From: a virus
Reading direction: 5' to 3' (one strand)
Length of the DNA: 64,000 nt
Virus record (IMG/VR): IMGVR_UViG_3300037826_000038
Coordinates: 4,766 to 68,765 of that record
Position 1 is the stretch's first letter, and every line of letters starts with the position of its first letter. The notes beneath the pieces are model-generated. The model had not been told where the DNA came from and made no database searches. It saw only the letters and a list, made by a program, of their open reading frames with translations. This document shows, in pieces, positions 4,898 through 62,292 of this stretch. Position numbers and translations under genes: made by a program.

Positions 4898-7800
4898 TCA
4901 CGATTGCAAGATGCTTTCCACCGCCCCCAGCACGGCTTGATTATCGTAGAGGAACCATTCGTCCCTCGCCCACCGATACAGGCATAGGGCCGCATATCCC
5001 ATCGTGTCCGCTGCCTGATACGCTGCCAGCACAACCTCACGTGCCCTCGCGTCGTCTACCCAGCCCCAGTCATATTCCTGCGTGCGCCAGAGGTGGTTGA
5101 ACTCGGTGACGACAACCGGGAGGGACCGGTAGCCACCGGGTAAGGCCTCTAGCAGGGCTTCGATGCACAGGGGATAGTTGAGGTACTGCCACGTCATCGG
5201 GTCATTGACAAACCGGGCGGTAGAGCCAACCTTCTCCGGATCCGGTCCCCGTATGTAGCCGTGAACCGGCACCAGTTCAGCCCCGTCAATCCCCGTATAC
5301 ATCTCACGCAGCCAGTCCCGAGGGTCTCCCAGTTGGGCGTTGAATGGGTCCAGCGCCCCCGGGCCCATCGGCACGTCAACGGCTGCATAAACGGAGTTGT
5401 AGGCCGCAATCCAGTTCTGTACCGTCAACCGGGTATCTTTGGGGTGTTCACGCACGTTATTGATTTCATTGCATAACGTGTATCCCGCAACTCCCCGGCT
5501 GTCTTTGATGGTCTGAATGCATGCCTGGATAAAGCGCACGTATTCATCAGAGCCAAACGCCGGCATCGTCCCCCCACCGCCGAGGTCGCTGCTCCACGAG
5601 TACCGCAGGTTCACGTAAATGTCTATCCCCGCGTCTGCGTACTGGGTGAAGTCGAACGGTCGAGCGTCTCCCCCCAGGAAGACCGGCATTGCAATGGCGC
5701 GGGGTCCCGGATAGTCAAGCAACCACTGGGCGGCAAGAATATCCCGGTTGCTCCCGTCTACGACCATATCATTGAAGCCAATCGCCGGAGCCGAGGGAGG
5801 AGGCGGTGGGGGCTCCTCAACGGTCCGATATTCAGCCAAGGCATAGATGGCTTGGGCCAGCGTCTTGCCAGGACCGTAGGCTTGGAGCAGTTTGCGTCGT
5901 GTCCCCGTCCACGGATCCATCACCAGTATATCCGAACCGTCGTCAACTATTTGTAACCCTAACACAAAATGGCTGTCCAGAGGATCGCCCGGATAGAAGT
6001 CGACTTGCATGATTGCAGGACCGTTCGCCAGCACGCGCCGCACCGTGCCCATATCGGCGACCTGTCCCGGATCGCGCCATGTGTGGTACTGCACAAACTC
6101 CAATTCGTCTACCAGTTCTGCACCCTTGGCCCAGACAAACAATGCGCCGTCCACGAATCCCCCACTAGCGGTCATCTGGCGATTGACCTCTCCCGGTGTC
6201 AGGTCCGGGTCATACGGACTTGCCAGGGACGCAAAGGCCGTGACTACGCACCCGGCTTTGCCTAGGATCAAGGCTGACGTCCCCAACCGATCATCGGCCC
6301 ACCTCTCGTCCCGTTGGGAGTGATTGACAATCTCCGGGTATCCGGGGTCCGGTTCGGTGTCGGCAAACACCAGTACGGTATCCGGGTCGCGGTTCTCAAC
6401 CCACGCCCGGTAGCGGGGACGGTTTTCTTCAGGCATCGGCCCGGCGTCAACCGTATTGGTACGCCACTCAGGGGGACGGTTCACTTGGACGGCATCGTGC
6501 CAGGAGTTGGTCACCGTCCGGGTTTCCTCAAATCCCCGCATATACGCTGTCATTCGCTGTGTGTCACTCATGTAGGTGGGGTCTGCCATAATCACGTAGC
6601 GGTCATACTGGTTGGGTTCAGGTTCCGGGTCGGGTTGGTAGGAGGCTGCTTCAATCACCAGTTCACGCCACACCCCAGTAAGCCCGGCACGTTTGAGATC
6701 AAACCCTGCCCACGCACCCCCTAGGCTCCCCCACCCGAACACCTGCATCGACCGGATATAAGGAGACTTCCCTATCTGGTTGAGATACCAACGCATTTGC
6801 GCGCCCCAGTTCTCAGGCGTCATCGTGCGTAGGTCTCTGGCTACGTTGACCTCGGTGAGATCGACCAGCGGCATGTGCTTTGCTCCACCCACGGCATCTT
6901 CCCACCAGCGGAACCGGCACGCGAGGGGTCCCCGGTCTGGGTGAGCTTCGCGTCCGGGGATGGGGCTGCCAAAATCCTTGTCCAAGGGATTGGCGTATTC
7001 GTGCAGCGCCAGGGCGTGCCCCCGTGCCTTCATCTCGGCGAGGATTCCGGTTTCAGCTACCGCTAACATTTCCGTCCACTCCGGCACGCCCAGGGAGTAC
7101 GAGAACAGGCTGGTCAGGTAGCCGTTGGCGTCCGCAATGTCCATACAGTGGAACATAAACTCGGCCAGACGCCGATGTCCGTCTGCACCCGGTGGGTCCT
7201 GCTCGTTGATGATCTCCCATACGTCCACGTATTCCCGGTGAGGGTCCCACGCCCGCATTGACGCATCCATCACCCGTTCGGCCTCGCGGCGTAGGTCCCC
7301 GTCCAGGTTGGGGCCCTCTACGTTGACGTCATTGGGGATACCCCGGTGCAGGCGCCCGATGGTCAGTATGTCACGCCCAGCCTCAGCAGCTAGCGTTTTG
7401 AACAGTTCGAGGGTTCCCATCACCGGAGGGTCTCCGTAAGCTTTCACGGAAGGGAGCGGGGCATCGGCAGGTAACTCACCGGCCAGGGACCGGTATTCGT
7501 CACTGGCTCCATCGTCCCCGGTATTCAGGTGTAATCCCGGCATCACCATGCGCTGGTTAGGAGTGGGAGGCGGTTCCGGGTCGTCGGTTACCCGCTCTAG
7601 CAGCATTGCGTCCCAGTAGACATCGCAGTGTTTGAACGGCCATAACACCTGTGACCGCAGAAACACCGTCACGGTCTCCGACAATGCCTCGGCGGTGACG
7701 CCGGGGACTTGTCCGTAGGTGTTGTAGATATGCCCAGTCTCTCCCCACACGACACTATCTCCCCACGGATCGGTCCGTCCCGTGGGGTCGATCCCCACCT

Positions 7801-24003: not shown

Positions 24004-24956
24004 GGTGCGCTACCCCCTGAATACGTAATGCTCCACGTGTTGAACCCCTCCGCTTCGGGATCGTTCACCACCTCGTACACGTACTCAAGCCCCGTCGTTG
24101 GCGGGTCGCCGTCCTGATACGTGCCAGACGGTGCGGCATTCGTACCGCCGATATTGAGTTCCGGCGTGCCGTCGGTGAAGTTGGCCCGCTCGGCGTACAT
24201 ATCGGCCAGCAGCGCATCCACCGCCGCCTCTGTCCAGCCGCAATCTTGGACGCGACAAACCGTTATTGCGGTCATTGTGCCGATTGTGCCTTGGCTTACG
24301 CCGGTGTCGTACAGGTACAGCTCCGTCAGCGATGTGAGCGTCGCAATGTCTGCGATGTCACCTGATACGCTGGTGTTGTACAGTTGCAGGACCGTCAGCG
24401 AGGTGAGTGTGCTGATGTCGGCAATGTCACCACTCACGCTGGTGTTGTACAGGTACAGGCGCGTCAGCGAAGTGAGTGTGCTGATGTCGGCAATGTCACC
24501 ACTCACGCTGGTGTTGTACAGGCGCAGGAACGTCAGCGAGGTGAGTGTGCTGATGTCGGCAATGTCACCACTCACGCTGGTGTTGTGCAGGTACAGGCGC
24601 GTCAGCGAGATGAGCGTCGCAATGTCTGCGATGTCACCCGATACGCCGGTGCTGCCCAGGCGCAGGCGCGTCAGCGAGGTGAGCGGGCTTAGCTCTCCCA
24701 GACCATTTCCGTCAACGTTCGCATCACCGTGCAGGTCTAGCTCCGTCACATGCCCGCCGGACACTGTGACGCCGGTCCAGTTGTCCACCACAGGATCAGT
24801 CGTCCAGCCGGTGTTGTCGGTCCAGTTGTCCCCGTCTGTCGCGTCGTAGAACGCGATCAGTGCGTCCGCCTCAACCTGTGGCACATCGGACGGGGTGAAG
24901 CCCCCGCTCATCAGCACCGGGACGGCAAGCCCGCGTCGCACTCTCAGCACGCCCAT
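24000..24956 (-). CDS. Leucine-rich repeat protein
   Basis: LRRNT-like cap (ALIAFYDATDGDNW..W.GVT) and 23-aa repeats SGDIADISTLTSLTxLxLxNTSV. Confidence 0.9.
   Translation of the reverse strand: MGVLRVRRGLAVPVLMSGGFTPSDVPQVEADALIAFYDATDGDNWTDNTGWTTDPVVDNWTGVTVSGGHVTELDLHGDANVDGNGLGELSPLTSLTRLRLGSTGVSGDIADIATLISLTRLYLHNTSVSGDIADISTLTSLTFLRLYNTSVSGDIADISTLTSLTRLYLYNTSVSGDIADISTLTSLTVLQLYNTSVSGDIADIATLTSLTELYLYDTGVSQGTIGTMTAITVCRVQDCGWTEAAVDALLADMYAERANFTDGTPELNIGGTNAAPSGTYQDGDPPTTGLEYVYEVVNDPEAEGFNTWSITYSGGSAP
24295..24690 (-). repeat. 69-bp tandem repeat (5-6 units) encoding LRRs
   Basis: Near-identical gtgagtgtgctgatgtcggcaatgtcaccactcacgctggtgttgt units. Confidence 0.9.
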
Positions 24957-41943: not shown

Positions 41944-42078
41944 GGCTTAGTACCTGAATACTATATGTCCCCAGGGCAGTTTTAGGCAATTTGTGAAATT
42001 GCCCTATTTGCCCCTTGACTTTATAATGTTTTAGGGTTATAATGTAAGTGAGTTAAGTAAACACTACACACCGGGAGG
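41944..42078 (+). promoter_or_regulatory. Repeated early promoter cassette with consensus sigma70 promoter
   Basis: TTGACT 42015-20, 17 bp, TATAAT 42038-43; GGCAAT/ATTGCC repeats; ~96 bp nearly identical to 49343-49439. Confidence 0.9.
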
Positions 42079-44032: not shown

Positions 44033-44669
44033 ACTTCCCATCCTGTATAACTCATTCTCGATGCGTGCGTTCCTCGCTGACCGGAAACGGGAGACGCGCC
44101 GGGCCATCACCCCGCAGCCGTGGTTGGCTAACAACCTATGGCATTATAGTCCCAACAAGAAGGCTGTGGGGTTGACCGGAGAGGCTTTGCTTGACGGACC
44201 GTACGAGTACAACGTCTGGCCCAACGATCAGGCCTACTCCCTGGCAATGGTGCGCTATTGTCCTTACGGACAGCGGGGAGGCAGGGTGTGGGGGCGTGAG
44301 TCGTGGATCCTTCTTGAGATCGACGCCCCCACCTACCGCATCCAGTACACTGCCGACAAGACCCAGGCAGTGATCCACTGTGACCGGGAGCTTGACGTGC
44401 TCACTACAACAGGTCCCAAGCCGGGCATCTTTATGCCCCGCGAGTTCTCACGGATCACCCATGAACTTGTCAACGTGCGCGCCGAACGGCTCCACGAGAT
44501 CACCCGCGAAGGGGCGCTAGCCGAGGGAATCGAGCCGATACCACAACTTCAGGGTGAGGCCATTCAAGCGTATGGGGCACTATGGGACGCGATCAATTTT
44601 AGCCGGGGCTACGGGTGGAAGGATAACCCGTGGGTGTGGGTACTACAACTAGGAGAGTGGATTGTATGA
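44022..44669 (+). CDS. ASCH/PUA-related phage protein
   Basis: RKRETRR, CPYG..VWGRE, IFMPR..SRI, ERLHEIT..ALAEG, NPWVWV. Confidence 0.8.
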   Translation: MTTELPILYNSFSMRAFLADRKRETRRAITPQPWLANNLWHYSPNKKAVGLTGEALLDGPYEYNVWPNDQAYSLAMVRYCPYGQRGGRVWGRESWILLEIDAPTYRIQYTADKTQAVIHCDRELDVLTTTGPKPGIFMPREFSRITHELVNVRAERLHEITREGALAEGIEPIPQLQGEAIQAYGALWDAINFSRGYGWKDNPWVWVLQLGEWIV

Positions 44670-45316
44670 ATGTCAAACTACTGAGCATCACCCCAAACGC
44701 CGATGAACTGATTGAGCACGCCGGGCGGGTATGTCACCAGTCCAACGAACTTGATGGTACGGATACAGAAACGTTTATCCGGTATCTGGTTAAAGTGGGA
44801 CATGAGAGTGTAATTGAGCACGCCACAGCTACGTTCGAGATCAGCGGGATCAGCCGGGCGTGCAGTCACCAGCTTGTCCGGCACCGCATCGCGTCGTACT
44901 CCCAGGAGAGCCAGCGGTACGTCGATATGTCTGACCCCGAATACGTGATGCCCCCTACCATTGAGGACGACGCTGAGGCGCTGGAGACCTTTACGGAACT
45001 GTGCTATCACGTCACACGCCTCTATCGCGAACTGCGTGAGTTGGGTATTCCCAAGGAGGACGCCCGGTTCGTGCTGCCCAACGCCACCGCAACCCGTATC
45101 GTGGTCACGATGAACTTCCGGGAACTGCTCCACTTCTTCAGGCTGCGTACTACACCGCACGCCCAGTGGGAAATCCGTTGGGTTGCACTGTGGATGCTGG
45201 ACCTACTTGGGACACAGAGTGTCATTTTCTACGATTTTCTGGCACGGTTTATCGACTATCACCCTGACCTGTATCAACAATACCTCGGCCGGAGGACCCA
45301 CTATGAAGCGCAGTAA
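44666..45316 (+). CDS. thyX: FAD-dependent thymidylate synthase
   Basis: GHESVIEH, RHRIASYSQESQRY, EDARFVLP, AQWEIR. Confidence 0.97.
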   Translation: MNVKLLSITPNADELIEHAGRVCHQSNELDGTDTETFIRYLVKVGHESVIEHATATFEISGISRACSHQLVRHRIASYSQESQRYVDMSDPEYVMPPTIEDDAEALETFTELCYHVTRLYRELRELGIPKEDARFVLPNATATRIVVTMNFRELLHFFRLRTTPHAQWEIRWVALWMLDLLGTQSVIFYDFLARFIDYHPDLYQQYLGRRTHYEAQ

Positions 45317-46115
45317 GATCGAGTGGACGGACTATTCAGGTGGCTACGCTAACATCGTCTGGCGGGGTTCTGAGGACTCCGACTGCAAATGCTCACCGGG
45401 GTGCGCGAACTGCTATGTTGACCGCATCACTGCCCGCGCCGGGGACCGCTGGCCGCACCTAACCCAGTTTCACCCCGACAAACTGGACAAACTGGCACGC
45501 TGTCAGCCCCGTCCCGGTAAGACCCCGTATCGTCGAGGTCCGGGCAGCAAGCCCATGGTCTTTGTTGTAGACATCGGGGACCTTTTTCACCGGCGCGTCC
45601 CCCAGTGGTTTATCCACAAGTCACTGGATACGTTTTATGTCCGTAACGACATCACATGGCAGTTACTCACCAAACGCCCGGACCGTATGTATGACGAGAT
45701 CGAAGCGTGGCTGACGGTCAATGCTCTAAATGAGTTGCCGGATTGGATATGGGCCGGTGTGACCGTGGAAAACCAAGACTGTGCGGCAGACCGCATCAAT
45801 CCATTTTCGGCACTGAGAGCAGCGGTGCGGTGGGTGTCTTATGAGCCAGCGCTGGGTGACATCTACTGGGCCGGTTGGGAGTTTGTGGACTGGCTGGTGG
45901 CTGGGGGAGAGTCCGGTGCTGATGCCCGGCCCGCGTCTGTGGTATGGTTCCGCAACGCCCGTGACTGGGCGTTGGAAAACGGGATCGACTTCTTCTTCAA
46001 ACAGTGGGGGGAATGGGCACCCACAGGGGACAATTCGATGATGCTCAAGCGTGTTGGGCGGTATGATGCAGGGTGTGAGTTGGACGGGAGAGAATGGAGG
46101 GAGTTTCCGAGATGA
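45303..46115 (+). CDS. DUF5131 (phage Gp37/Gp68) radical-SAM-like protein
   Basis: SKIEWTD, C.CSPGCANCY, LLTKRP, GVTVENQ, GGESG, FFFKQWG. Confidence 0.92.
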   Translation: MKRSKIEWTDYSGGYANIVWRGSEDSDCKCSPGCANCYVDRITARAGDRWPHLTQFHPDKLDKLARCQPRPGKTPYRRGPGSKPMVFVVDIGDLFHRRVPQWFIHKSLDTFYVRNDITWQLLTKRPDRMYDEIEAWLTVNALNELPDWIWAGVTVENQDCAADRINPFSALRAAVRWVSYEPALGDIYWAGWEFVDWLVAGGESGADARPASVVWFRNARDWALENGIDFFFKQWGEWAPTGDNSMMLKRVGRYDAGCELDGREWREFPR

Positions 46116-49304: not shown

Positions 49305-49439
49305 GCATAGTACCAAGGTACTAGCACCAACCGGGGCAATTCTAGGCAATTTGTGAAATTGCCCTATTTGCCCCTTGACATTATAATGTTTTAGGGTTAT
49401 AATGTAAGTGAAGTTAAGTAAACACTACACACCGGGAGG
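49303..49439 (+). promoter_or_regulatory. Repeated early promoter cassette with perfect sigma70 consensus
   Basis: TTGACA 49375-80, 17 bp, TATAAT 49398-403. Confidence 0.9.
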
Positions 49440-50411: not shown

Positions 50412-50450
50412 TTAAACACAGCTATTAGTTTTTGGTTTATGCATGTAAAG
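50412..50450 (+). promoter_or_regulatory. Promoter motif (copy 6)
   Basis: TTAAAC 50412-17, GGTTTAT from 50434. Confidence 0.75.
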
Positions 50451-50479: not shown

Positions 50480-51082
50480 ATGACAGTGAACATTCGATGC
50501 GACGAGGACCGTTGTTTTGCCAGTAGCCCCTATCACCCCGACTTGCACAAGGAAGAAGCAATGGACAAGCAAACCTACACGATCAATGACGAAAAGCCGC
50601 CTTTGCGAGAACTGATTGGGCGCAGGTTTGATGACGTGCGCGATCTCCGCGAGCAGGACCTCGATCACCTGCAGGACGCGATTACCATTCGGCGTAATGA
50701 GATCATGGCCTCTCGTCTGGAAAAGCGCGGCATCCAGACGAGAATCTGCAAAGACTTCGACGACGGTCCCGCATACCATTTCTCCTACATATTGGTCTGC
50801 GACCCTGAAGGTGAGCTCCCGAACGAATGGGCTGACCTGGGTGAGGCACGCCGATTGCTGGATACGGCCCGTAACCTGGGACCTGCCGAAGCGTTCCGAC
50901 GCTGGCGTGAGAAGGTCGCCCCACTAGCGCACGAGACGTACACCCGAGCCGACGCTCTTCGTGACGTGCGCGCCGAACGCGCGGAAGCTGATCAGATGTA
51001 CAGGGACGGGCAGATCGATGCAGAAACCCATCGGATGATGCACCGCGATGCCCGTGATTACCTGGACATGGCAGAAGAATGA
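50480..51082 (+). CDS. Hypothetical protein (alternative start 50561)
   Basis: AGGAGG RBS; ATGA overlap with the helicase. Confidence 0.6.
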   Translation: MTVNIRCDEDRCFASSPYHPDLHKEEAMDKQTYTINDEKPPLRELIGRRFDDVRDLREQDLDHLQDAITIRRNEIMASRLEKRGIQTRICKDFDDGPAYHFSYILVCDPEGELPNEWADLGEARRLLDTARNLGPAEAFRRWREKVAPLAHETYTRADALRDVRAERAEADQMYRDGQIDAETHRMMHRDARDYLDMAEE

Positions 51083-53163
51083 CCCTCCTCGTCAAACCGG
51101 AAGAGCAGGTCTCGACCCAGACGGCGTCGCTGCGCATCGATGGCGACGTCGTCTCGGTCGTGCTCCCGGATCGCGACCCTCGGTTCGTGAACGTCGTCCG
51201 GTCCTTATCATTTCGTTGGGACCGATCGCGCTACGCCTGGGTCCGGAAGGTCGGCAAGTTCACCGGATCCGTCGAGGACCGTGCCGCCGAGGCAGGGCGC
51301 GCTATCCTCGCTGCCGGCTTCGGCGTCGATTTCCCCGACGAGGCGGTCCAGGACAAGGCCGTCTCCGGCGATTACGAGCCAGAGGTCCGCCGCTGGGTCC
51401 TCGCTGCGACCGGTGGTGAGTACAAGGGGTGGTTTCTCCTCCGGTGGGGCCGCCGCCGTGACGAGGTCAACTACTACACGCGGGCCAAGAAAATCACCGG
51501 TGCATGTTACGACCGTAACGCGCATGCGGTCGTCGTGCCGTCCGATCAATATCGCGAGGTCGAGGACTTTGCGCAAATGCACGACTTCCGTTTCTCCCCT
51601 GGGGCTCACGCCCTCGTCACTGAGGCCAAGCAGCGCGAGGCCAAGGCCCTGGTCGTCGCCGTCGAGTTCGAGGATGCGGACGACGGCGGGCGCCGCTGGC
51701 GACGCCCTACGCTTGACGAGCCCTCCGGCAAGCCGCTCCCAAAGTTTATCGACTACCGGGGTGTGGACTTCGGCGTGACGACCGCTCTCTTCCGCCATCA
51801 GACACAGGCCGTGGAGAAGCTCGCGCCTCTGACCGTCGGCGGGGCATTTATGGAGATGGGGACCGGAAAGACCCGCGTTGCCATCGAATTGGCGCATCGC
51901 CGCCGGCGCCGTCTCAGCGGCGTCGTGTGGTTCTGCCCCGTCTCGCTCAAGGCCACGATCCGCCATGAGATCCACAAACATACGGCGGACTCGGCGGTCT
52001 ATGTCTTCGACGACAACACGACGATCCGCTCGCTGCCGCGTGCAGATTGGTACATTGTCGGCATTGAATCGATGAGCAGCTCGGACCGGACGGTCCTGGC
52101 CGCCAACGCCATCATCGATGAACATTCGATGGTGGTCGTCGATGAGTCGTCGAAGATCAAAAACCACGACGCCAACCGGACGCGTAGGATTACCAGCGTC
52201 GGGGGGAAGGCCCGCTACCGGATGATTCTCACCGGCACGCCGGTCTCCCAGGGCGTCGAGGACCTCTACGCGCAATTGCGCTTCCTGTCGCCGGAGATCC
52301 TCGGGTACAACTCCTACTATAGCTTCGCAGCCAATCACCTGGAATACCATCCGGATTATCCCGGTATGGTCGTCCGGGCGCACAACACCGCCTGGCTGGC
52401 CGCCAAGCTGCAGCCGTACGTCTACCAGGTGACCAAGGACGAGGCCGGGCTGGATCTCCCCCGCAAGGTCCACGAAGCGCGGTATTTCGACATGACGTAC
52501 GAGCAGCGGGAACTCTACGAGCGGGCGAAGTACGAGCTGCTGATGATGCTGCCGGACGACGAGATTGACAGCTACGCCATCTTTCGGCTGTTCGGCGCGC
52601 TTCAGCAGATCACGAGCGGCTTTTGGAATCGCGACGGGGAAGTGATCGCCGTTGACCACGACCGCCTGGGAACCGCGCTGGCCGCCGTCGATAGCATTCC
52701 CCCGGAGGCCAAGGTGATCATCTGGTGCAAATACCTCCGCAGCCTTCACGCCCTGGCCGGTGCCCTGCGTGCCGAGCATGGCGAGGAAAGCGTCGCGCTC
52801 TACTACGGCGATCTCAACGAGCAGGAGCGCGAGGCAGAGCTCAACCGGTGGCGATCTGAGGCCCGCTTCCTGGTGGCCACCCAATCCACCGGCGGCTACG
52901 GCCTGACGCTTAACGAGGCGCACCACGTGCTCTTCTACGAGAACGGATTCAGCTACGCCGAACGCCTCCAAGCCGAGGACCGGTGCCACCGGATCGGCCA
53001 GGAGCACCGCGTCACGTACGTCGACGTGACCTGCGAGCGGTCCATTGACACCCGGATCCAGCAGGCGCTGGACAGCAAGGAGAACTTCGCCGCAGCTTTC
53101 CGCAGACAAATCGACCGAGTCAAAGACGATCCGGCTAAGGTTAAGGAACTCATCAACGCATAG
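51079..53163 (+). CDS. SNF2-family helicase with HARP-like N-terminal domains
   Basis: MEMGTGKT, VVDESS, LTGTP, GGYGLTL, QAEDRCHRIGQ. Confidence 0.93.
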   Translation: MTLLVKPEEQVSTQTASLRIDGDVVSVVLPDRDPRFVNVVRSLSFRWDRSRYAWVRKVGKFTGSVEDRAAEAGRAILAAGFGVDFPDEAVQDKAVSGDYEPEVRRWVLAATGGEYKGWFLLRWGRRRDEVNYYTRAKKITGACYDRNAHAVVVPSDQYREVEDFAQMHDFRFSPGAHALVTEAKQREAKALVVAVEFEDADDGGRRWRRPTLDEPSGKPLPKFIDYRGVDFGVTTALFRHQTQAVEKLAPLTVGGAFMEMGTGKTRVAIELAHRRRRRLSGVVWFCPVSLKATIRHEIHKHTADSAVYVFDDNTTIRSLPRADWYIVGIESMSSSDRTVLAANAIIDEHSMVVVDESSKIKNHDANRTRRITSVGGKARYRMILTGTPVSQGVEDLYAQLRFLSPEILGYNSYYSFAANHLEYHPDYPGMVVRAHNTAWLAAKLQPYVYQVTKDEAGLDLPRKVHEARYFDMTYEQRELYERAKYELLMMLPDDEIDSYAIFRLFGALQQITSGFWNRDGEVIAVDHDRLGTALAAVDSIPPEAKVIIWCKYLRSLHALAGALRAEHGEESVALYYGDLNEQEREAELNRWRSEARFLVATQSTGGYGLTLNEAHHVLFYENGFSYAERLQAEDRCHRIGQEHRVTYVDVTCERSIDTRIQQALDSKENFAAAFRRQIDRVKDDPAKVKELINA

Positions 53164-53177
53164 AGCAGAAAGGAAAG

Positions 53178-53705
53178 ATGATGGATAGATACGAAGTCGA
53201 GTTGGCGAGTGAGTTCTGCGATGTTTTGTTTGCGACTTTATCTGCGGTCGGTTTGTTTCCTGACGACCCGGCAGCTCCGGATCACGAGTTTGAGGAGCCG
53301 GGCTTGTTGTTGGTCAAGCGTCTACGTCAGTACGATGATCCCGAGCCGGGTTATTTGGAATGGATCTCTGAGATTCTGCGTCGTGAAGACGCCGAACACC
53401 GAGAAGTCACATTCCCAGAGCTGATGGTCCTACGGTCATGGGTTATCGAGATGTCCTACGAGTTCAATGATGAGATGTACCGACATCTGGAGAAATCTCT
53501 GTTGGCAAGGGCAAGGCAATGGCAGTTTTCGCTTAAGAAAAACCTTCTCAGCTTGGCAGACGCTGAATCAGAATGGGGGATGTCGAACCTTCGCCAGAAT
53601 GCACGGGGGCGACTTCCGATGTGGAAAGTTGGTCGAAATTGGGTGACCACCAGAACTGCGATGTGGACGACGTTTGGAGAACCGGAGGGAGAATACGACC
53701 TATGA
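53178..53705 (+). CDS. Protein with C-terminal helix-turn-helix (excisionase/MerR-like)
   Basis: LLSLADAESEWG..LRQ..WKVGRNWVTTRTAM..FG. Confidence 0.65.
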   Translation: MMDRYEVELASEFCDVLFATLSAVGLFPDDPAAPDHEFEEPGLLLVKRLRQYDDPEPGYLEWISEILRREDAEHREVTFPELMVLRSWVIEMSYEFNDEMYRHLEKSLLARARQWQFSLKKNLLSLADAESEWGMSNLRQNARGRLPMWKVGRNWVTTRTAMWTTFGEPEGEYDL

Positions 53706-54394
53706 GTAAGACGCTGTTTGACACCCTGGTCGACGATATCGTCGACCAGGGGCTTGAGTTGGCCAAGCAGATAGAGACGCTTCCAGAGGAGCAACGTATC
53801 AGGGCGCTTAACCGTGTCAGGACCGCGCTTCATAGGGTTAGTCCTTTTAAGGACGAGCCGATAGATCTGGTCCTGTGGGAAAAAGGTGAGCGCGTCAAAC
53901 CAAACGATTACAACCCCAATGTCGTCCATCGCCCGGAGATGAGGCTCCTCGAAGAGTCCATCGACGTGGATCATATGACACAACCGGTTGTCACGTCCTC
54001 GCCCGATGCGGATCCTCACGTAGACCCCAAACCAATAGTCGATGGCGAGCATCGATACATTATATGCACCGATGTAGGCCGGATACACGCACGGCTTCGA
54101 GGATATGTGCCGATCACAATCGTACCGGCAGACACAGAGCAAGCGCAGATGGCGAGCACGGTTAGACACAACCGTGCTCGCGGGGTACATAAATTAGACG
54201 GCATGACAGACATTGTTCTGTCAATGCTGCAAGCTGGATGGGAAGACGACGAGATTGCCAACGCGATGGGTATGGATGCCGACGAAATCCTTCGCCTCAA
54301 ACAGGTCGCGGGTGCAGCGGAGGCGTTCAGACGTCCGATGTACAAAAGAGCCTGGGTTTTCGATGATGGACAAACAGAAATTGAAACACCTTGA
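53702..54394 (+). CDS. ParB/Srx-like protein (IbrB-like)
   Basis: PNDYNPN, IVDGEHR, MASTVRHNRARGVH, LGMDADE-like HTH, RLKQ. Confidence 0.88.
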   Translation: MSKTLFDTLVDDIVDQGLELAKQIETLPEEQRIRALNRVRTALHRVSPFKDEPIDLVLWEKGERVKPNDYNPNVVHRPEMRLLEESIDVDHMTQPVVTSSPDADPHVDPKPIVDGEHRYIICTDVGRIHARLRGYVPITIVPADTEQAQMASTVRHNRARGVHKLDGMTDIVLSMLQAGWEDDEIANAMGMDADEILRLKQVAGAAEAFRRPMYKRAWVFDDGQTEIETP

Positions 54395-55028
54395 ACAGTG
54401 GCGCGTCCGCGGTATTTTCGCACAGGACCGCTGCGAGCTATTTGAGGCGGCGGCGGAACAGATTTTGCAAGCTACCGGTCTCACCAGGGTCGTCTATTTG
54501 CATGACGAAGGTGGTGACATTCGTTTTGCTGGTGCGGACGAAACTTTTGTCCTACAACATATGACCAAGCGTTACACAGACCTACTAGCCGCTATGGATA
54601 CCATCAACGACGAGACCCTGTTGATTGTCGATGACGTCGAAAACATACAGAGGTATCCAATCTCAATGACACGCCACATGATCAATCATATTGCCAGTCA
54701 AACGCGGTATAAGATTATTGGAGGAGCGTCTTTGTTAGAACGTCACTTTTATGATCTGTACGCACCGTTCCACGTACTGGACCGGCGCATTCTCTGGGCT
54801 TCGCATTACTGGGCCCTCAAGGCTCAACATCGTGAAGTTTCTGTTTTTGACGGTCGTACCGTGGTTGAAAACAAAGACATGGCATACACAGCCAGAAAAA
54901 TCAAGCCGTTTGTCTATTTTGATTTGCAACCGGACTCGGACAACCCGTTACAGGTTGAGTTCTATGGCGATTTGCGACGCGCACCTATAATGCCCCGCAC
55001 GCAGGATATGGAGGACTTGAAGTTGTGA
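54363..55028 (+). CDS. Degenerate SNF2 N-terminal-domain paralog (no Walker A)
   Basis: LIVDD, DLYAPFHVLDRRIL, KIKPFVY align by eye with VVDE, DLYAQLRFLSPEIL, KLQPYVY of the helicase. Confidence 0.6.
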   Translation: MMDKQKLKHLEQWRVRGIFAQDRCELFEAAAEQILQATGLTRVVYLHDEGGDIRFAGADETFVLQHMTKRYTDLLAAMDTINDETLLIVDDVENIQRYPISMTRHMINHIASQTRYKIIGGASLLERHFYDLYAPFHVLDRRILWASHYWALKAQHREVSVFDGRTVVENKDMAYTARKIKPFVYFDLQPDSDNPLQVEFYGDLRRAPIMPRTQDMEDLKL

Positions 55029-56104
55029 GTAAAATCTACCTACTGCAGAATGTGTACGAAGCCGCTATCGAGCGTCTTAGATTCGTCAGAGAAAACTTCG
55101 ATCGCGTTGTTGTTGCCTTCAGCGGCGGCAAAGATTCAACGCTAACACTGCACTTGGCCATGGAGGTATTCAGTGATTTCACGGTCTACTTCTGGGACAA
55201 GGAAAGCAACTTGATCTCCACGGCGGACTTTATTCGTGATATATTCGATACTCTCTCTGGGCGGGTCGAACCTTATTGGTTCGCGCTTCCATTTAGGATG
55301 CGCAACGCACTAAGCGTTTATGAACCGTATTGGTACTGTTGGGACCCCTCATGTGTTGACCGCTGGATCTATCAGCCACCAGACCGTTCGTATGTCTATA
55401 TGAGAGATCGAAATATTCTGTCTTCATATGGATACAACCCCGATCGGCATAATTTATATCGGCTCTTCGCAGAACATATTAGCGAGCGCGGAAAATACAG
55501 AACCGCTATTCTCGTCGGCTTGCGCACCGACGAGTCACTGAATCGCTTCCGGGCAGTCACCAAAAACCCACAAATGGGAAAAACATGGATGACAAAAACG
55601 GACGCAGATGGCAACAACTGTTTCAATGTGTATCCGGTTTATGATTGGTCCTTCGGTGATGTCTGGACCTATATCGCTGAGAACAATGTCCCCTACGCGC
55701 CTGTTTATGACCAAATGCACAAAGCTGGTATTTACAAACGCAATATGCGGATTTCGCAATCTTTCTGTGACGTTAGCAAAAAGGGACTGCCGGCAATTCG
55801 AGAAATCGAGCCCGAGTCTTTTGCGAGGTTCGCGCAACGCGTCGCCGGTGTGAACTCGCTTACCCATGTTGACCTCGAAGAAGTTATCAAGGCGGCAGAA
55901 GGTATAAGTTACGATTTCCTTTTGCAGCTTTACCCTGCTGATGTACGAGAAGAAGTTGAGACTAGGCTTGAACGCAGCCCCACGCTCGATGGAGAAGACC
56001 GTAATGTTATTCGTGCGTTGCTCAACAATGACATCCGCCTGAAACGGGTAAATCGTTCTCGGCGCAATGGGGCAGCGGTTAAGGAGAAATATAGTAACCT
56101 ATAG
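55025..56104 (+). CDS. PAPS-reductase/PP-loop family protein (IbrA-like)
   Basis: VAFSGGKDS, WYCWDP, VGLRTDESLNR, YPVYDW..DVW, RVAGVN. Confidence 0.88.
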   Translation: MSKIYLLQNVYEAAIERLRFVRENFDRVVVAFSGGKDSTLTLHLAMEVFSDFTVYFWDKESNLISTADFIRDIFDTLSGRVEPYWFALPFRMRNALSVYEPYWYCWDPSCVDRWIYQPPDRSYVYMRDRNILSSYGYNPDRHNLYRLFAEHISERGKYRTAILVGLRTDESLNRFRAVTKNPQMGKTWMTKTDADGNNCFNVYPVYDWSFGDVWTYIAENNVPYAPVYDQMHKAGIYKRNMRISQSFCDVSKKGLPAIREIEPESFARFAQRVAGVNSLTHVDLEEVIKAAEGISYDFLLQLYPADVREEVETRLERSPTLDGEDRNVIRALLNNDIRLKRVNRSRRNGAAVKEKYSNL

Positions 56105-56110
56105 GAGGTT

Positions 56111-56575
56111 ATGATGCGACCTATTAAGGAGAAGAAACTTGTTGTCGTCGTGGGACCACCCGGTAGCGGGAAAACCACAATTCTTGACGATTATCCGGGA
56201 TACGTTCGCTTCGACAACGACAGGATCATCGAGGCACTATGGGGGGAGTTGAAGTATCATCCCCGTATCAAGAGAATGGCCAAGGGGATGGTGCGTGAGG
56301 GCATGCGCAGAGCGATGGAGTACGGGATCGCGATGGCGACCCCTATCAGCGGGCGAACAAAACAAGATCGTGCGAAAATCGTCAAACCAATCCGGTCGGC
56401 AGGCTATGAGGTTACCATGGTGCGAGCGACGACACCGGCGGACGAGTGTCTTGCGCGATGCAAAGCGGATGAAAATAGACCGAAAACCACAAATTGGGAA
56501 CCGATCATTGACCGGTGGTTCCGTGTCTTCGAACCTGTTGAGGCTGATGAGTGCGATACCTACATTGAGGTCTAG
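56111..56575 (+). CDS. P-loop kinase (AAA_33 / polynucleotide-kinase-like)
   Basis: VVGPPGSGKTT, R...R lid (CLARCKAD..R). Confidence 0.8.
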   Translation: MMRPIKEKKLVVVVGPPGSGKTTILDDYPGYVRFDNDRIIEALWGELKYHPRIKRMAKGMVREGMRRAMEYGIAMATPISGRTKQDRAKIVKPIRSAGYEVTMVRATTPADECLARCKADENRPKTTNWEPIIDRWFRVFEPVEADECDTYIEV

Positions 56576-56684
56576 TAGATAGGGAAGTCTCCCATCCCCT
56601 AACAAACACTTAACAGACCAAAAAGGAGGCACCATGCCGAAAGCAAACGAGCTCGCCCAGCACCTGCCCGTCCTTACACCCACT

Positions 56685-56737
56685 AACCGGAACCTGTTAA
56701 ACGCAGGTTCCGGTTTTTGGTTTATGTACGTAAACCA
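56685..56737 (+). promoter_or_regulatory. Terminator/promoter motif (copy 7)
   Basis: AACCGGAACCTG-ttaaacg-CAGGTTCCGGTT-TTT; TTAAAC 56697-702, GGTTTAT from 56719. Confidence 0.8.
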
Positions 56738-56753
56738 TACACCGGGAGGTAAC

Positions 56754-57392
56754 ATGCAGACGTTTCTACCGTACGAGGATTTCGAGCAGAGCGCACGAGT
56801 GCTTGACAACAGACGCCTAGGCAAACAGATCACCGAGGTCGATCAGATTCTTGACCGTCTGGAAAGCCCCAGTATGCCCCACGCTTGGCGCAACCACCCC
56901 ACGGTCAAGATGTGGGTTGGACACGCCGGCACACTGGTTGACTACGGGATCGAGATGTATGCTGAATGGCAGGACCGGCTATCCAAGGGGGAACGGGGTG
57001 GGGTGATGGAACACAAGTCTGGCGAACATATCCTTGACCAACACCTTACCTACTGGGACGGTTGCCAGTACAGAAACCCGCCGTGGCTGGGGGACCCCGC
57101 GTTCCACAAAGCCCACCGAGGGGCGCTTCTGTGGAAGGGATTGATGGACAAGACCTACGGACGGCTCAAGGAGAAGCTCCCCCAGGGAACCACCGCCGCG
57201 CAATGGCTTAGGGACCACGGCTACAACAAAAAGCACCGCTGGACCGAGGTCGATTACAACCGGGCGTGCCGGTACATTGGAACCACGGTCACGCTTGGGA
57301 TGACGTACTATGGGCTTGTGTTTGCCGACTGGGACAGCATGCTGGTTGCGGACGACAGTGGCAGCCTCCCGTATGTCTGGCCGGTGTCCTAA
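56754..57392 (+). CDS. Pyrimidine-dimer glycosylase/DenV-like (MSMEG_6728-type) protein
   Basis: MQTFLPYEDF..SARVLD.RRLGKQ, WRNHPTVKMW.GH, PPWLG..FH..HR..LL.K, LPYVWP. Confidence 0.85.
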   Translation: MQTFLPYEDFEQSARVLDNRRLGKQITEVDQILDRLESPSMPHAWRNHPTVKMWVGHAGTLVDYGIEMYAEWQDRLSKGERGGVMEHKSGEHILDQHLTYWDGCQYRNPPWLGDPAFHKAHRGALLWKGLMDKTYGRLKEKLPQGTTAAQWLRDHGYNKKHRWTEVDYNRACRYIGTTVTLGMTYYGLVFADWDSMLVADDSGSLPYVWPVS

Positions 57393-61657: not shown

Positions 61658-61719
61658 TAGGGCAATCTCCACCCAGTCAGCATTTGCCCCTTGACTTTAT
61701 AACGTTTTACCCTTATAAT
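61658..61719 (+). promoter_or_regulatory. Early promoter cassette copy driving the sigma factor gene
   Basis: gggcaat..tttgccccTTGACT 61691-96, 17 bp, TATAAT 61714-19. Confidence 0.85.
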
Positions 61720-61761
61720 TGAATTGTAGGGTTAAGGGACACAAACAACCGGGAGGAAACG

Positions 61762-62292
61762 ATGGAATACCTAGAGAACCAAGAGGTCGTTTACGGGATA
61801 CAGGAGGCCGGGATATGGTCAAAAGTCCACAAACTAGTCAAAGCGTGTGGGGGAGAGGTCGAGGACCACTTTCAGGAGATCGTCGCACAGGCAATTGAGG
61901 TTGTAGCCGACGATCCCACCTTGCTTGACCAGGAGCCGGGCTACCTGCTCCAACGGGCCATGTGGGAGGCCCAAAAACATTACCGACAGATCAACCACAC
62001 CTACATGAAACAGGCTCATAACTACCAGACGCTCAGCATGGACCGGGAGAGTGGCACCGGGAGCACCTTACACCAGATGTTATCCGACACCCCGAACCTC
62101 GACGACGCCATTGATCGGGCGTGGCTGGCAGACCGGGTACGCAGCGAGGCCCAACGGTTCGAGCAGGGTGTGGAGATGGTTGACCTTTTGAGCCAGGGTT
62201 GGTCTTACGCGGAGATCGCGGAGACCCTGGACATCTCCAAGGGGACGATTAGCTACCGGGTCCGCAAAATCCGGGAAGCCATCGCCGGGTAG
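61762..62292 (+). CDS. ECF-like RNA polymerase sigma factor
   Basis: 176 aa; EDHFQE region-2-like motif, LSMD linker, GWSYAEIAETLDISKGTISYR region 4 HTH. Confidence 0.8.
   Translation: MEYLENQEVVYGIQEAGIWSKVHKLVKACGGEVEDHFQEIVAQAIEVVADDPTLLDQEPGYLLQRAMWEAQKHYRQINHTYMKQAHNYQTLSMDRESGTGSTLHQMLSDTPNLDDAIDRAWLADRVRSEAQRFEQGVEMVDLLSQGWSYAEIAETLDISKGTISYRVRKIREAIAG

Follow-up and report, generated by a model that had tools for sequence, protein, structure and literature searches.

A Cas11d-derived gene embedded in an enlarged, sublineage-specific form of the phage IbrA/IbrB pair

A cassette of six open reading frames (ORFs), all on the plus strand at 51079-56575 of a 64,000-nucleotide stretch of viral DNA (hereafter the window; bases 4766-68765 of the IMG/VR virus record IMGVR_UViG_3300037826_000038, which has 68,765 bases and is complete by CheckV), encodes in order an SNF2 ATPase, a protein that we call p2, an IbrB-like ParB protein, a stand-alone SNF2 lobe (p4), an IbrA-like PP-loop ATPase, and a P-loop kinase. 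By sequence comparison, the core of the cassette is the known phage IbrA/IbrB pair, and the five genes other than p2 are an enlarged, sublineage-specific form of it. The explanation that we favour, tentatively and with somewhat less than even confidence, is that this enlarged module marks DNA and that p2 is carried along as separate anti-defence cargo. The initial annotation, made from the letters alone, had described six tightly coupled genes, and this is borne out by the ORF coordinates, with 4-nucleotide overlaps at 51079, 53702, and 55025, a 32-nucleotide overlap at 54363, and gaps of 14 and 6 nucleotides. Family searches and, for the dead SNF2, a profile alignment also confirmed its calls of SNF2, IbrB-like ParB, dead SNF2, IbrA, and kinase, while its "HTH protein" was half right: p2 does end in a winged helix-turn-helix (wHTH) domain, but the Cas11d-like domain at its N-terminus had been missed.

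We assessed the conservation of the module in a census of 81 viral loci with an IbrA relative, consisting of one locus (L007) and the best 80 of 313 confirmed relatives (phmmer, E ≤ 1e-3). An IbrB-like ParB gene adjoined IbrA in 80/81 loci, the single miss lying at a contig end; IbrA preceded ParB in 43 loci and followed it in 37. SNF2 was present in 13/81 loci and directly upstream of IbrA in 11/81, a stand-alone p4 and the kinase were each found in 1/81 (L007 in both cases), and p2 in 0/81. Profile searches agreed with these phmmer counts. An IbrA relative occurs in 223 of 50,697 phage records (0.4%), and the pair is adjacent in the annotated phages Pseudomonas Amjad_SA, Streptococcus CHPC1148 (with an SNF2-like gene upstream), Escherichia PhiR5_2, and Mycobacterium Gaia. 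The adjacency of IbrB and the repeated upstream position of SNF2 support the translocase-coupled IbrA/IbrB unit that the initial annotation had proposed.

Three further loci, with IbrA at about 70% identity, belong to the sublineage of the cassette. L091 carries long SNF2, ParB, p4, IbrA, and kinase genes contiguously. In L007, SNF2 (its N-domain a separate ORF) is followed by 3 other genes (3 kb), including one for a HAD/PNK3P phosphatase, and then by ParB, p4, IbrA, and kinase, and the 3.5-kb contig L090 holds ParB, p4, IbrA, and kinase. The cassette proteins are 47-72% identical to their counterparts in these loci. We take the five-gene array to be a single functional unit that acts on DNA and uses ATP. 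Co-conservation, on which the initial annotation had staked its proposal, thus extends to the IbrA-IbrB pair and to the five-gene order but not to all six genes as one unit, the p2 gene being absent from L007, L090, L091, and all 81 IbrA loci. The shift in base composition noticed inside the block is real, with a third-position G+C content (GC3) of 0.82 in the SNF2 gene versus 0.52-0.61 in the five genes after it. Because GC3 is 0.81-0.89 in all five cassette genes of L091, the step at p2 is probably a recombination seam. A megablast search of phage genomes with the cassette gave no match.

IbrA matches phrog_2302 ("PAPS reductase") with E 1.6e-69. Its DUF3440 domain scores 22.7 bits against a cut-off of 25, over profile positions 1-95 of 182 (24.5 bits in a six-frame search, or 25.7 with neighbours, for a model that also matches the E. 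coli control genome); the protein has 359 amino acids (aa) versus about 400-440, and its DUF3440 is shorter than in five other aligned sequences. Residues S33, G35, K36, D37, and S38 are each invariant in 82/82 IbrA sequences, together with about 30 other positions. No cysteine is invariant among the 82; five columns are Cys in 52-72 of them, and the window IbrA keeps one of the five. Scores against curated models were far below their cut-offs for the DndC equivalog TIGR03183 (38.3 versus 290.4 bits), cysH TIGR00434 (36 versus 165.1), PAPS_reductase TIGR02057 (32.3 versus 254.2), and CysD; SspD gave E 0.0043 and BrxP a weak local similarity. Membership of IbrA in the Dnd/Ssp systems or among cysH-type auxiliary metabolic genes was rejected on the equivalog scores and the lack of conserved Cys, and the same evidence disfavours the suggestion in the initial annotation that the complex thiolates its target. 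The nearest solved relatives are CysD (1zun, E 2e-6) and then FAD synthase, enzymes that adenylylate an oxyanion (sulfate and FMN phosphate, respectively). Given this kinship and the lack of a conserved Cys, sulfur insertion is unlikely and adenylyl transfer is the economical guess. We infer for the IbrA module an ATP-dependent, DNA-directed adenylylation or an anti-defence role.

IbrB matches phrog_2159 ("ParB-like") with E 7e-57. It had no hit in Pfam, ParBc included, and a 16-sequence profile of its family matches ParB 4umk (E 4.6e-4) and Noc 7ol9 (E 1.6e-3). D114, G115, H117, and R118 are each kept in 80/81 sequences. The E. coli K-12 paralogues of IbrA/IbrB are YbdN/YbdM.

The SNF2 protein (51079-53163) matches SNF2-rel_dom (E 6e-22, residues 259-486) and Helicase_C (E 3e-13, residues 542-640), and its ATPase motifs (Table 1), GTGK and DE among them, are kept in 13/13 SNF2 proteins (that of the window and 12 locus proteins with E < 1e-25). 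Judged by its intact motifs, it is active. The AF2 model of its N-terminal extension (mean pLDDT 79.6, about 90 over residues 1-190) shows two repeats. Compared by VIA-align with 48,161 chains, the top matches were two XPB damage-recognition domains (DRD), 5tnu_A (Z 6.2; model 13-88, root-mean-square deviation (rmsd) 2.1 over 57 residues) and 2fz4_A (Z 5.8; model 104-177, rmsd 1.7 over 55 residues), and the T4 UvsW N-domain reached Z 4.7. Foldseek gave a local probability of 0.8-0.91 to XPB and nothing at E ≤ 1e-3 in the PDB, and the Atlas leads, HARP and XPB_DRD, scored below 0.9 (HARP is a lead on 21% of one cluster, at 0.86). These weak but concordant hints suggest a DNA-structure-recognising module. 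The extension is missing from most IbrA-linked SNF2 proteins, which have about 413-500 aa. The 929-aa SNF2 of L091 (4643-7432 of that locus) carries the DRD/HARP-like N-terminal module twice more, and residues 4-170 of the window SNF2 match L091 4649-5152 in addition to their regular position.

No family search hit p4. Alignment by hhalign places it on SNF2 residues 272-452, after Walker A (probability 98.3, E 2e-14), with DESS replaced by DDVE, TGTP by GGAS, and the second RecA lobe missing, so that p4 is, on this alignment, an ATPase-dead SNF2 N-lobe. Across its family of 10 sequences, mean column identity is 62% and many residues are invariant, and at least 10 relatives are found at 45-70% identity. 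With an intact ORF that is strongly conserved throughout these 10 sequences, p4 is a selected protein rather than debris, and we rejected a decaying pseudogene. A predicted complex of IbrA and p4 scored 0.24 against a mark of 0.32, which counts neither for nor against binding.

The kinase gene lies directly 3′ of IbrA in 4/4 sublineage loci, its start overlapping or abutting the IbrA stop. Its PDB matches are weak, the best being 9d8a (E 9e-4), with APS kinase at E 0.023. A partner 3′-phosphatase was not found among the window genes scanned. In L007, the HAD/PNK3P-type phosphatase gene occupies 5412-6473, between SNF2 and ParB; from its family assignment, phosphatase and kinase would make a split Pnkp-like pair.

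The remaining gene, p2 (53178-53705), differs in origin. Its product matches Cas11d in PADLOC (PDLC01499, E 1.1e-20, residues 5-135 on profile positions 5-133 of 185), in agreement with a six-frame repeat of the search. An exhaustive profile search seeded with p2 and three close homologues retrieved 46 proteins at E ≤ 1e-3. Six of these, of 893-1028 aa, were matched at their C-terminal ~120 residues (E 2e-11 to 7e-9) and are Cas10_Id (E 1e-132 to 1e-247) plus Cas11d in PADLOC; stand-alone matches of 210-234 aa are Cas11d (E 5e-47 to 4e-86). Comparison by hhalign of 10 HTH-fused with 24 canonical Cas11d sequences gave a probability of 99.8 and E 1e-29 over 117 columns. The AF2 model of p2 (28-sequence alignment; pLDDT 91.5, pTM 0.74) had as its top three among the 48,161 chains 7sbb_I (Cas10d residues 788-972, Z 7.7), 7sba_J (Cas11d, Z 7.5, 117 residues), and 6thh_C (Sulfolobus Cas10d, Z 6.8). 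The N-terminus of p2 is, by these profile and model comparisons, an orphan Cas11d-derived domain. Canonical Cas11d runs ~70-100 residues further, and p2 has the wHTH in their place: residues 121-167 align with Pukovnik Xis (4j2n, Z 5.7, rmsd 1.8) and also with RdfS, BldC, and TraN. HTH_59 is sub-threshold on p2 (E 0.034) and reaches E 5e-4 in the homologue P0003, and the Atlas neighbours are HTH_17/excisionase. An unrooted tree separates the 11 HTH-fused proteins, as a single clade (100/100), from the 24 canonical ones. Some p2 homologues (L089 8505-8753; P0002, P0003, and P0015) continue beyond the wHTH into a further conserved C-terminal domain of ~85 aa that matches no family.

The 68.8-kb record contains no match to Cas10_Id, a model that was silent in control genomes but scored E 1e-132 to 1e-247 on true Cas10d, and no CRISPR-like array. 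A second p2 context was found through p2 alone in the locus L089, where a long SNF2 (52% identity), the p2 homologue (61%), a 300-aa ORF, IbrA (30%), and ParB (34%) follow one another; p2 is thus directly after a long SNF2 and <2 kb from IbrA/ParB in 2/2 loci with context. No further context was found in genome contigs, in metagenome contigs, or, with P0017, P0019, and P0016 as queries, in viral contigs. Because L089 was found via p2 alone and IbrA occurs in so few phage records, this repeat of the association is unlikely to be chance (n = 2). The far higher identity of L089 for SNF2 and p2 than for IbrA and ParB suggests that SNF2 and p2 travel together between different IbrAB backgrounds. 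A literature search for viral Cas11, orphan cas11, or a Cas11 mimic, which did not extend to supplementary tables, found no paper, and the Cas11d-wHTH fusion appears to represent a class of virus-encoded, Cas-derived proteins not described before.

In the explanation that we favour, IbrB would bring IbrA to double-stranded DNA, and a phage DNA-modifying enzyme has been described that needs a ParB-like activator on double-stranded DNA (PMC13229309). The SNF2 motor would supply access or scanning, with p4 as a putative non-catalytic adaptor that would retain the IbrA-facing surface of SNF2. IbrA would then use ATP to adenylylate an oxyanion on DNA. The kinase beside IbrA suggests phosphate as a possible acceptor, which in this lineage may first be installed by that kinase. 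Phage DNA would thereby gain a post-replicative mark, or else an activated intermediate, that shields it from host nucleases. As for p2, it is most likely separate anti-defence cargo, by analogy a defective-subunit anti-CRISPR against type I-D: viral cas homologues are described as acting as anti-CRISPRs and sitting in anti-defence loci, and homologues of Cascade subunits as assembling into defective complexes (Katz et al., bioRxiv 10.1101/2023.06.24.545427). In type I-D, the minor filament is reported to be built from two Cas11d copies and the Cas10d C-terminus and to support the R-loop (PMC9123187). As a truncated Cas11d decoy, p2 could poison this filament; its wHTH would be a DNA-binding (Aca-like) domain of its own, and the same anti-defence operon would have captured p2.

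Several observations weigh against this explanation. Kinase and p4 are confined to the one sublineage (1/81 loci, plus L090 and L091), so kinase-first chemistry is not general. A literature search on IbrA/IbrB found no biochemistry, modification, substrate, or phenotype, and annotation notes in phage records call the pair a "co-activator of prophage gene expression", which points to regulation and is its sole reported phenotype. For p2, Z scores in the range 6.8-7.7 count as middling where helical bundles are compared; Foldseek with its model found nothing at E ≤ 1e-3 in the PDB (Cmr5 2zop ranked 6, E 2.3), and PDB sequence searches with p2, p2 profiles, and a mixed profile did not reach the solved Cas11d (Synechocystis chain). 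The structural match still carries weight because all three top ranks are type I-D, in agreement with the sequence data. Moreover, p2 has no promoter of its own, follows SNF2 after only 14 nucleotides, and has a known context in only two loci, and the decoy role presupposes a phage host with type I-D.

The close setting of p2 could alternatively mean that it is an integral subunit of an SNF2-IbrAB machine, its Cas11-like bundle holding the displaced strand while the PP-loop enzyme acts, a parallel to type IV-B. This we regard as improbable. The placement of p2 in both loci, the discovery of L089 via p2 alone, and its co-transcription fit such a role, as do type IV-B operons, which are described as having cas11-like and cysH-like genes and a CasCysH without the catalytic cysteine (PMC8175902), IbrA likewise being without a conserved one. 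However, the absence of p2 from the sister loci and from the whole census implies that the machine works without it, and p2 groups with type I-D Cas11d and not with the IV-B family, none of the six cassette proteins having a Csf-type PADLOC hit. We give a small chance to p2 being a working part of a guide-independent DNA-opening machine composed of SNF2, a Cas11-like strand holder, ParB, and a cysteine-less PP-loop enzyme, as a functional analogue of, and possibly an evolutionary link to, the Cas11/CasCysH pairing of type IV-B; that would be the more interesting outcome, giving a handle on what IbrA and CasCysH do to nucleic acids. A regulatory anti-silencing module is unlikely, although not negligible: IbrB would be a ParB-like clamp/HTH and IbrA a nucleotide-handling partner, and together they would switch on phage genes and leave no covalent mark. 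The annotation notes quoted above favour it, as do the ParB N-domain and HTH-like segment of IbrB, the DNA-binding wHTH that p2 adds, and a repeated regulatory motif, TTTGGTTTATNNNNGTAAAC, that bounds the block. Yet the invariant PP-loop and about 30 invariant residues of IbrA indicate conserved catalysis, an SNF2 motor and a kinase are hard to explain by regulation alone, and IbrA/IbrB in phages usually sits among DNA-metabolism genes.

Repair offers another framework, in which a SMARCAL1/UvsW-like annealing helicase, a ParB-type nickase, and a polynucleotide-kinase-like end healer would serve the replication fork beside a pyrimidine-dimer glycosylase, with IbrA as an accessory nucleotide enzyme. 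The resemblance of the SNF2 N-terminus to the XPB DRD and the T4 UvsW N-domain, the AAA_33 kinase, the HAD/PNK3P phosphatase gene in the L007 array, and the Pyr_excise, HNH, and DnaB genes after the cassette agree with this; but the fold matches are weak (Z 4.7-6.2), most IbrA-linked SNF2 proteins are without the extension, the kinase is found in 1/81 loci plus L090 and L091, and the strict IbrA-IbrB pairing is left unexplained, so that we consider a repair set rather improbable. Dnd/Ssp-like phosphorothioation or base thiolation, the variant put forward at the outset, is very unlikely: a weak local similarity of IbrA to DndC, SspD, and BrxP models and a ParB-like partner that recalls DndB (as presented in PMC12839542) are outweighed by the DndC equivalog score, the lack of an invariant Cys, the loss in the window IbrA of four of the five semi-conserved Cys columns, and the failure of scans of the cassette genes and of neighbours to turn up a cysteine desulfurase. 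Barely credible is a sulfur-assimilation auxiliary metabolic gene (a viral cysH) with unrelated neighbours. IbrA is routinely annotated as a "PAPS reductase", and a preprint on viral organosulfur metabolism mentions DUF3440, but the TIGR00434 and TIGR02057 scores, the lack of a conserved catalytic Cys, and the pairing with a ParB-like protein in 80/81 loci all speak against it.

IbrA/IbrB is widespread in phages and also found in E. coli. The present version is unusually informative: it sets an active SNF2 beside a dead one and adds a dedicated kinase, which suggests a two-step scheme of phosphorylation and then adenylylation. If p2 blocks type I-D Cascade, it would join AcrID1 as a second mechanism by which I-D is inhibited and would serve I-D editing systems as a compact tool.

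The cassette lies within a plus-strand early/replication arm with its onset near 42.7 kb, the structural genes occupying the minus strand at about 4.9-41.8 kb (Table 1). Before the cassette, this arm encodes an RNase-H-fold exonuclease, ThyX, and DUF5131 (family scans), and beyond it the pyrimidine-dimer glycosylase (Pyr_excise), an HNH endonuclease, a DnaB-like helicase, and a small sigma-70 region-4-like protein. No tRNA genes are present. The initial annotation had placed the six genes between two copies of a promoter motif. The motif is real: the window contains TTTGGTTTATNNNNGTAAAC, of 20 nucleotides, 7 times, always on the plus strand, where 0.01 copies are expected by chance. The block between the two copies has, however, seven genes and not six, the first of which has no counterpart in L007, L089, or L091. 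Each copy, with a palindromic core GGTTTA-N6-TAAACC, stands just 5′ of a ribosome-binding site (RBS) and a start codon, often after a GC-rich hairpin, and TTTGGTTTATNNNNGTAAAC could be a phage-specific promoter or operator. The palindromic core was also considered as a candidate binding site for the wHTH of p2. The motif had no match in 89/91 loci, and the two matching loci (L001 and L002) come from the record studied here.

Table 1. Features of the cassette and its boundaries (window coordinates).
Feature	Position	Strand	Remarks
TTTGGTTTATNNNNGTAAAC copies	239, 1986, 42422, 48814, 50431, 56716, 62736	+	motif search of the window
Upstream TTTGGTTTATNNNNGTAAAC copy	50431-50450	+	followed by RBS AGGAGG and ATG at 50480
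First gene of the TTTGGTTTATNNNNGTAAAC-bounded block	50480-51082	+	200 aa; no family; stop overlaps SNF2 start
SNF2 N-terminal extension, residues 1-195	51079-51663	+	two tandem alpha/beta modules, XPB DRD-/UvsW N-domain-like
SNF2 ATPase core, both RecA lobes	51853-52998	+	GTGKT 261-265, DESS 355-358, TGTP 386-389, Q/R/G/Q 631-641
p2 N-terminal five-helix bundle	53187-53537	+	homologous to first ~118 positions of Cas11d, the type I-D small subunit
p2 C-terminal excisionase/MerR-type wHTH	53544-53675	+	AF2 secondary structure, VIA-align
IbrB-like ParB/Srx protein	53702-54394	+	NxxNPN, DGEHR, HNRARGxH, then HTH-like segment
p4, stand-alone SNF2 N-lobe	54363-55028	+	no Walker A, motif II/III degenerate, no C-lobe
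IbrA-like PP-loop ATPase	55025-56104	+	PAPS_reduct (PF01507) E 8.8e-19; shortened DUF3440; SGGKDS at residues 33-38
P-loop kinase, AAA_33/Zeta-toxin-like	56111-56575	+	AAA_33 E 2.6e-11; GPPGSGKT
Terminator-like hairpin, 13-bp stem	56685-56715	+	adjoins TTTGGTTTATNNNNGTAAAC copy 56716-56735, the downstream boundary

Other elements of the window were recorded in passing. The sigma-70 region-4-like HTH protein (176 aa, 61762-62292, plus strand, E 3e-6) might be a candidate phage sigma factor or appropriator that reads TTTGGTTTATNNNNGTAAAC. A 52-nucleotide element with a perfect TTGACA-17-TATAAT occurs at 42000-42051, 49360-49411, and 61676-61727 (plus strand), the first two copies being 98% identical, and these are probably early promoters of the plus-strand arm for host RNA polymerase. 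The Pyr_excise ORF (56634-57392, plus strand) has two good RBS and ATG starts, at 56634 and 56754; the 40-codon extension between them contains the hairpin and a TTTGGTTTATNNNNGTAAAC copy, and the Pfam match begins at residue 41. Near the left end of the window, a 553-aa AAA ATPase (288-1949) and a DUF1257 protein (2033-2491), both on the plus strand, are each preceded by a TTTGGTTTATNNNNGTAAAC copy. The ThyX gene (E 5e-70) overlaps the start of the DUF5131 (phage Gp37/Gp68) gene at 44630-46115 (plus strand), and no dUMP hydroxymethylase-type gene was seen among the window genes scanned. A 69-nucleotide tandem repeat of 5.6 copies at 84% identity lies within a structural gene (24298-24683, minus strand).

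Comparison with known systems places the parts of the cassette at different distances from their relatives. The tandem N-terminal repeats of SNF2 recall SMARCAL1/HARP-type helicases, although they best match the XPB DRD and then UvsW, with HARP only an Atlas lead. The kinase may be set beside T4 Pnk through its AAA_33 assignment, with weak PDB matches and a phosphatase gene in the L007 array. Like DndBCDE/SspABCD, the cassette pairs a PP-loop enzyme of PAPS-reductase fold with a ParB-like protein (DndB in that case); unlike them, it scores far below the equivalog cut-offs and has no conserved Cys/Fe-S ligands, and a desulfurase and DndD/E were not seen in the scans of cassette and neighbours. 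A ParB-like protein likewise accompanies a DNA-modifying enzyme in the ParB-dependent phage thymine dioxygenases (as described in PMC13229309) and, as DpdB, in Dpd (as described in PMC12839542), where the enzyme is a Fe/2OG dioxygenase or a TGT and not, as here, a PP-loop ATPase. Type IV-B CRISPR-Cas shares with the cassette the pairing of a Cas11-family protein with a cysteine-less PP-loop protein of PAPS-reductase fold on a mobile element, as set out in PMC8175902. In the cassette, however, the Cas11 belongs to type I-D, the PP-loop protein is an IbrA with DUF3440 and a ParB partner, and the Cas11-like gene is dispensable in sister loci; a PADLOC scan covering the six cassette proteins gave no hit to Csf1, Csf2, or Csf3 among them.

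With Cas11d and the Cas10d C-terminus (PDB 7SBA, 7SBB, and 6THH), p2 shares the first ~118 positions and the five-helix bundle, and it differs in being an orphan in a virus with neither cas10d nor array, in having an Xis-type wHTH as its C-terminal third, and in forming a clade of its own. It resembles the viral anti-CRISPRs described by Katz et al. (bioRxiv 10.1101/2023.06.24.545427) as an orphan cas homologue near candidate anti-defence genes; unlike those cases, it has a fused HTH, and its activity is predicted by analogy. The main text of that preprint does not contain the term "Cas11", and its Table S3 may list Cas11 queries. The closest relative of the cassette as a whole is IbrA/IbrB itself (the E. 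coli ibrAB island; phrog_2302 and phrog_2159 in phages), with which it shares the SGGKDS-bearing PAPS_reduct domain with DUF3440 and a ParB/Srx protein with DGxHR and HNRARGxH. Elsewhere, the pair often has a compact SNF2 directly upstream. Unlike that usual form, the cassette has the order IbrB-p4-IbrA, a shortened DUF3440, an IbrA that has lost most of the semi-conserved Cys, a long active SNF2 together with a dead lobe, an added kinase, and an inserted Cas11d-like gene.

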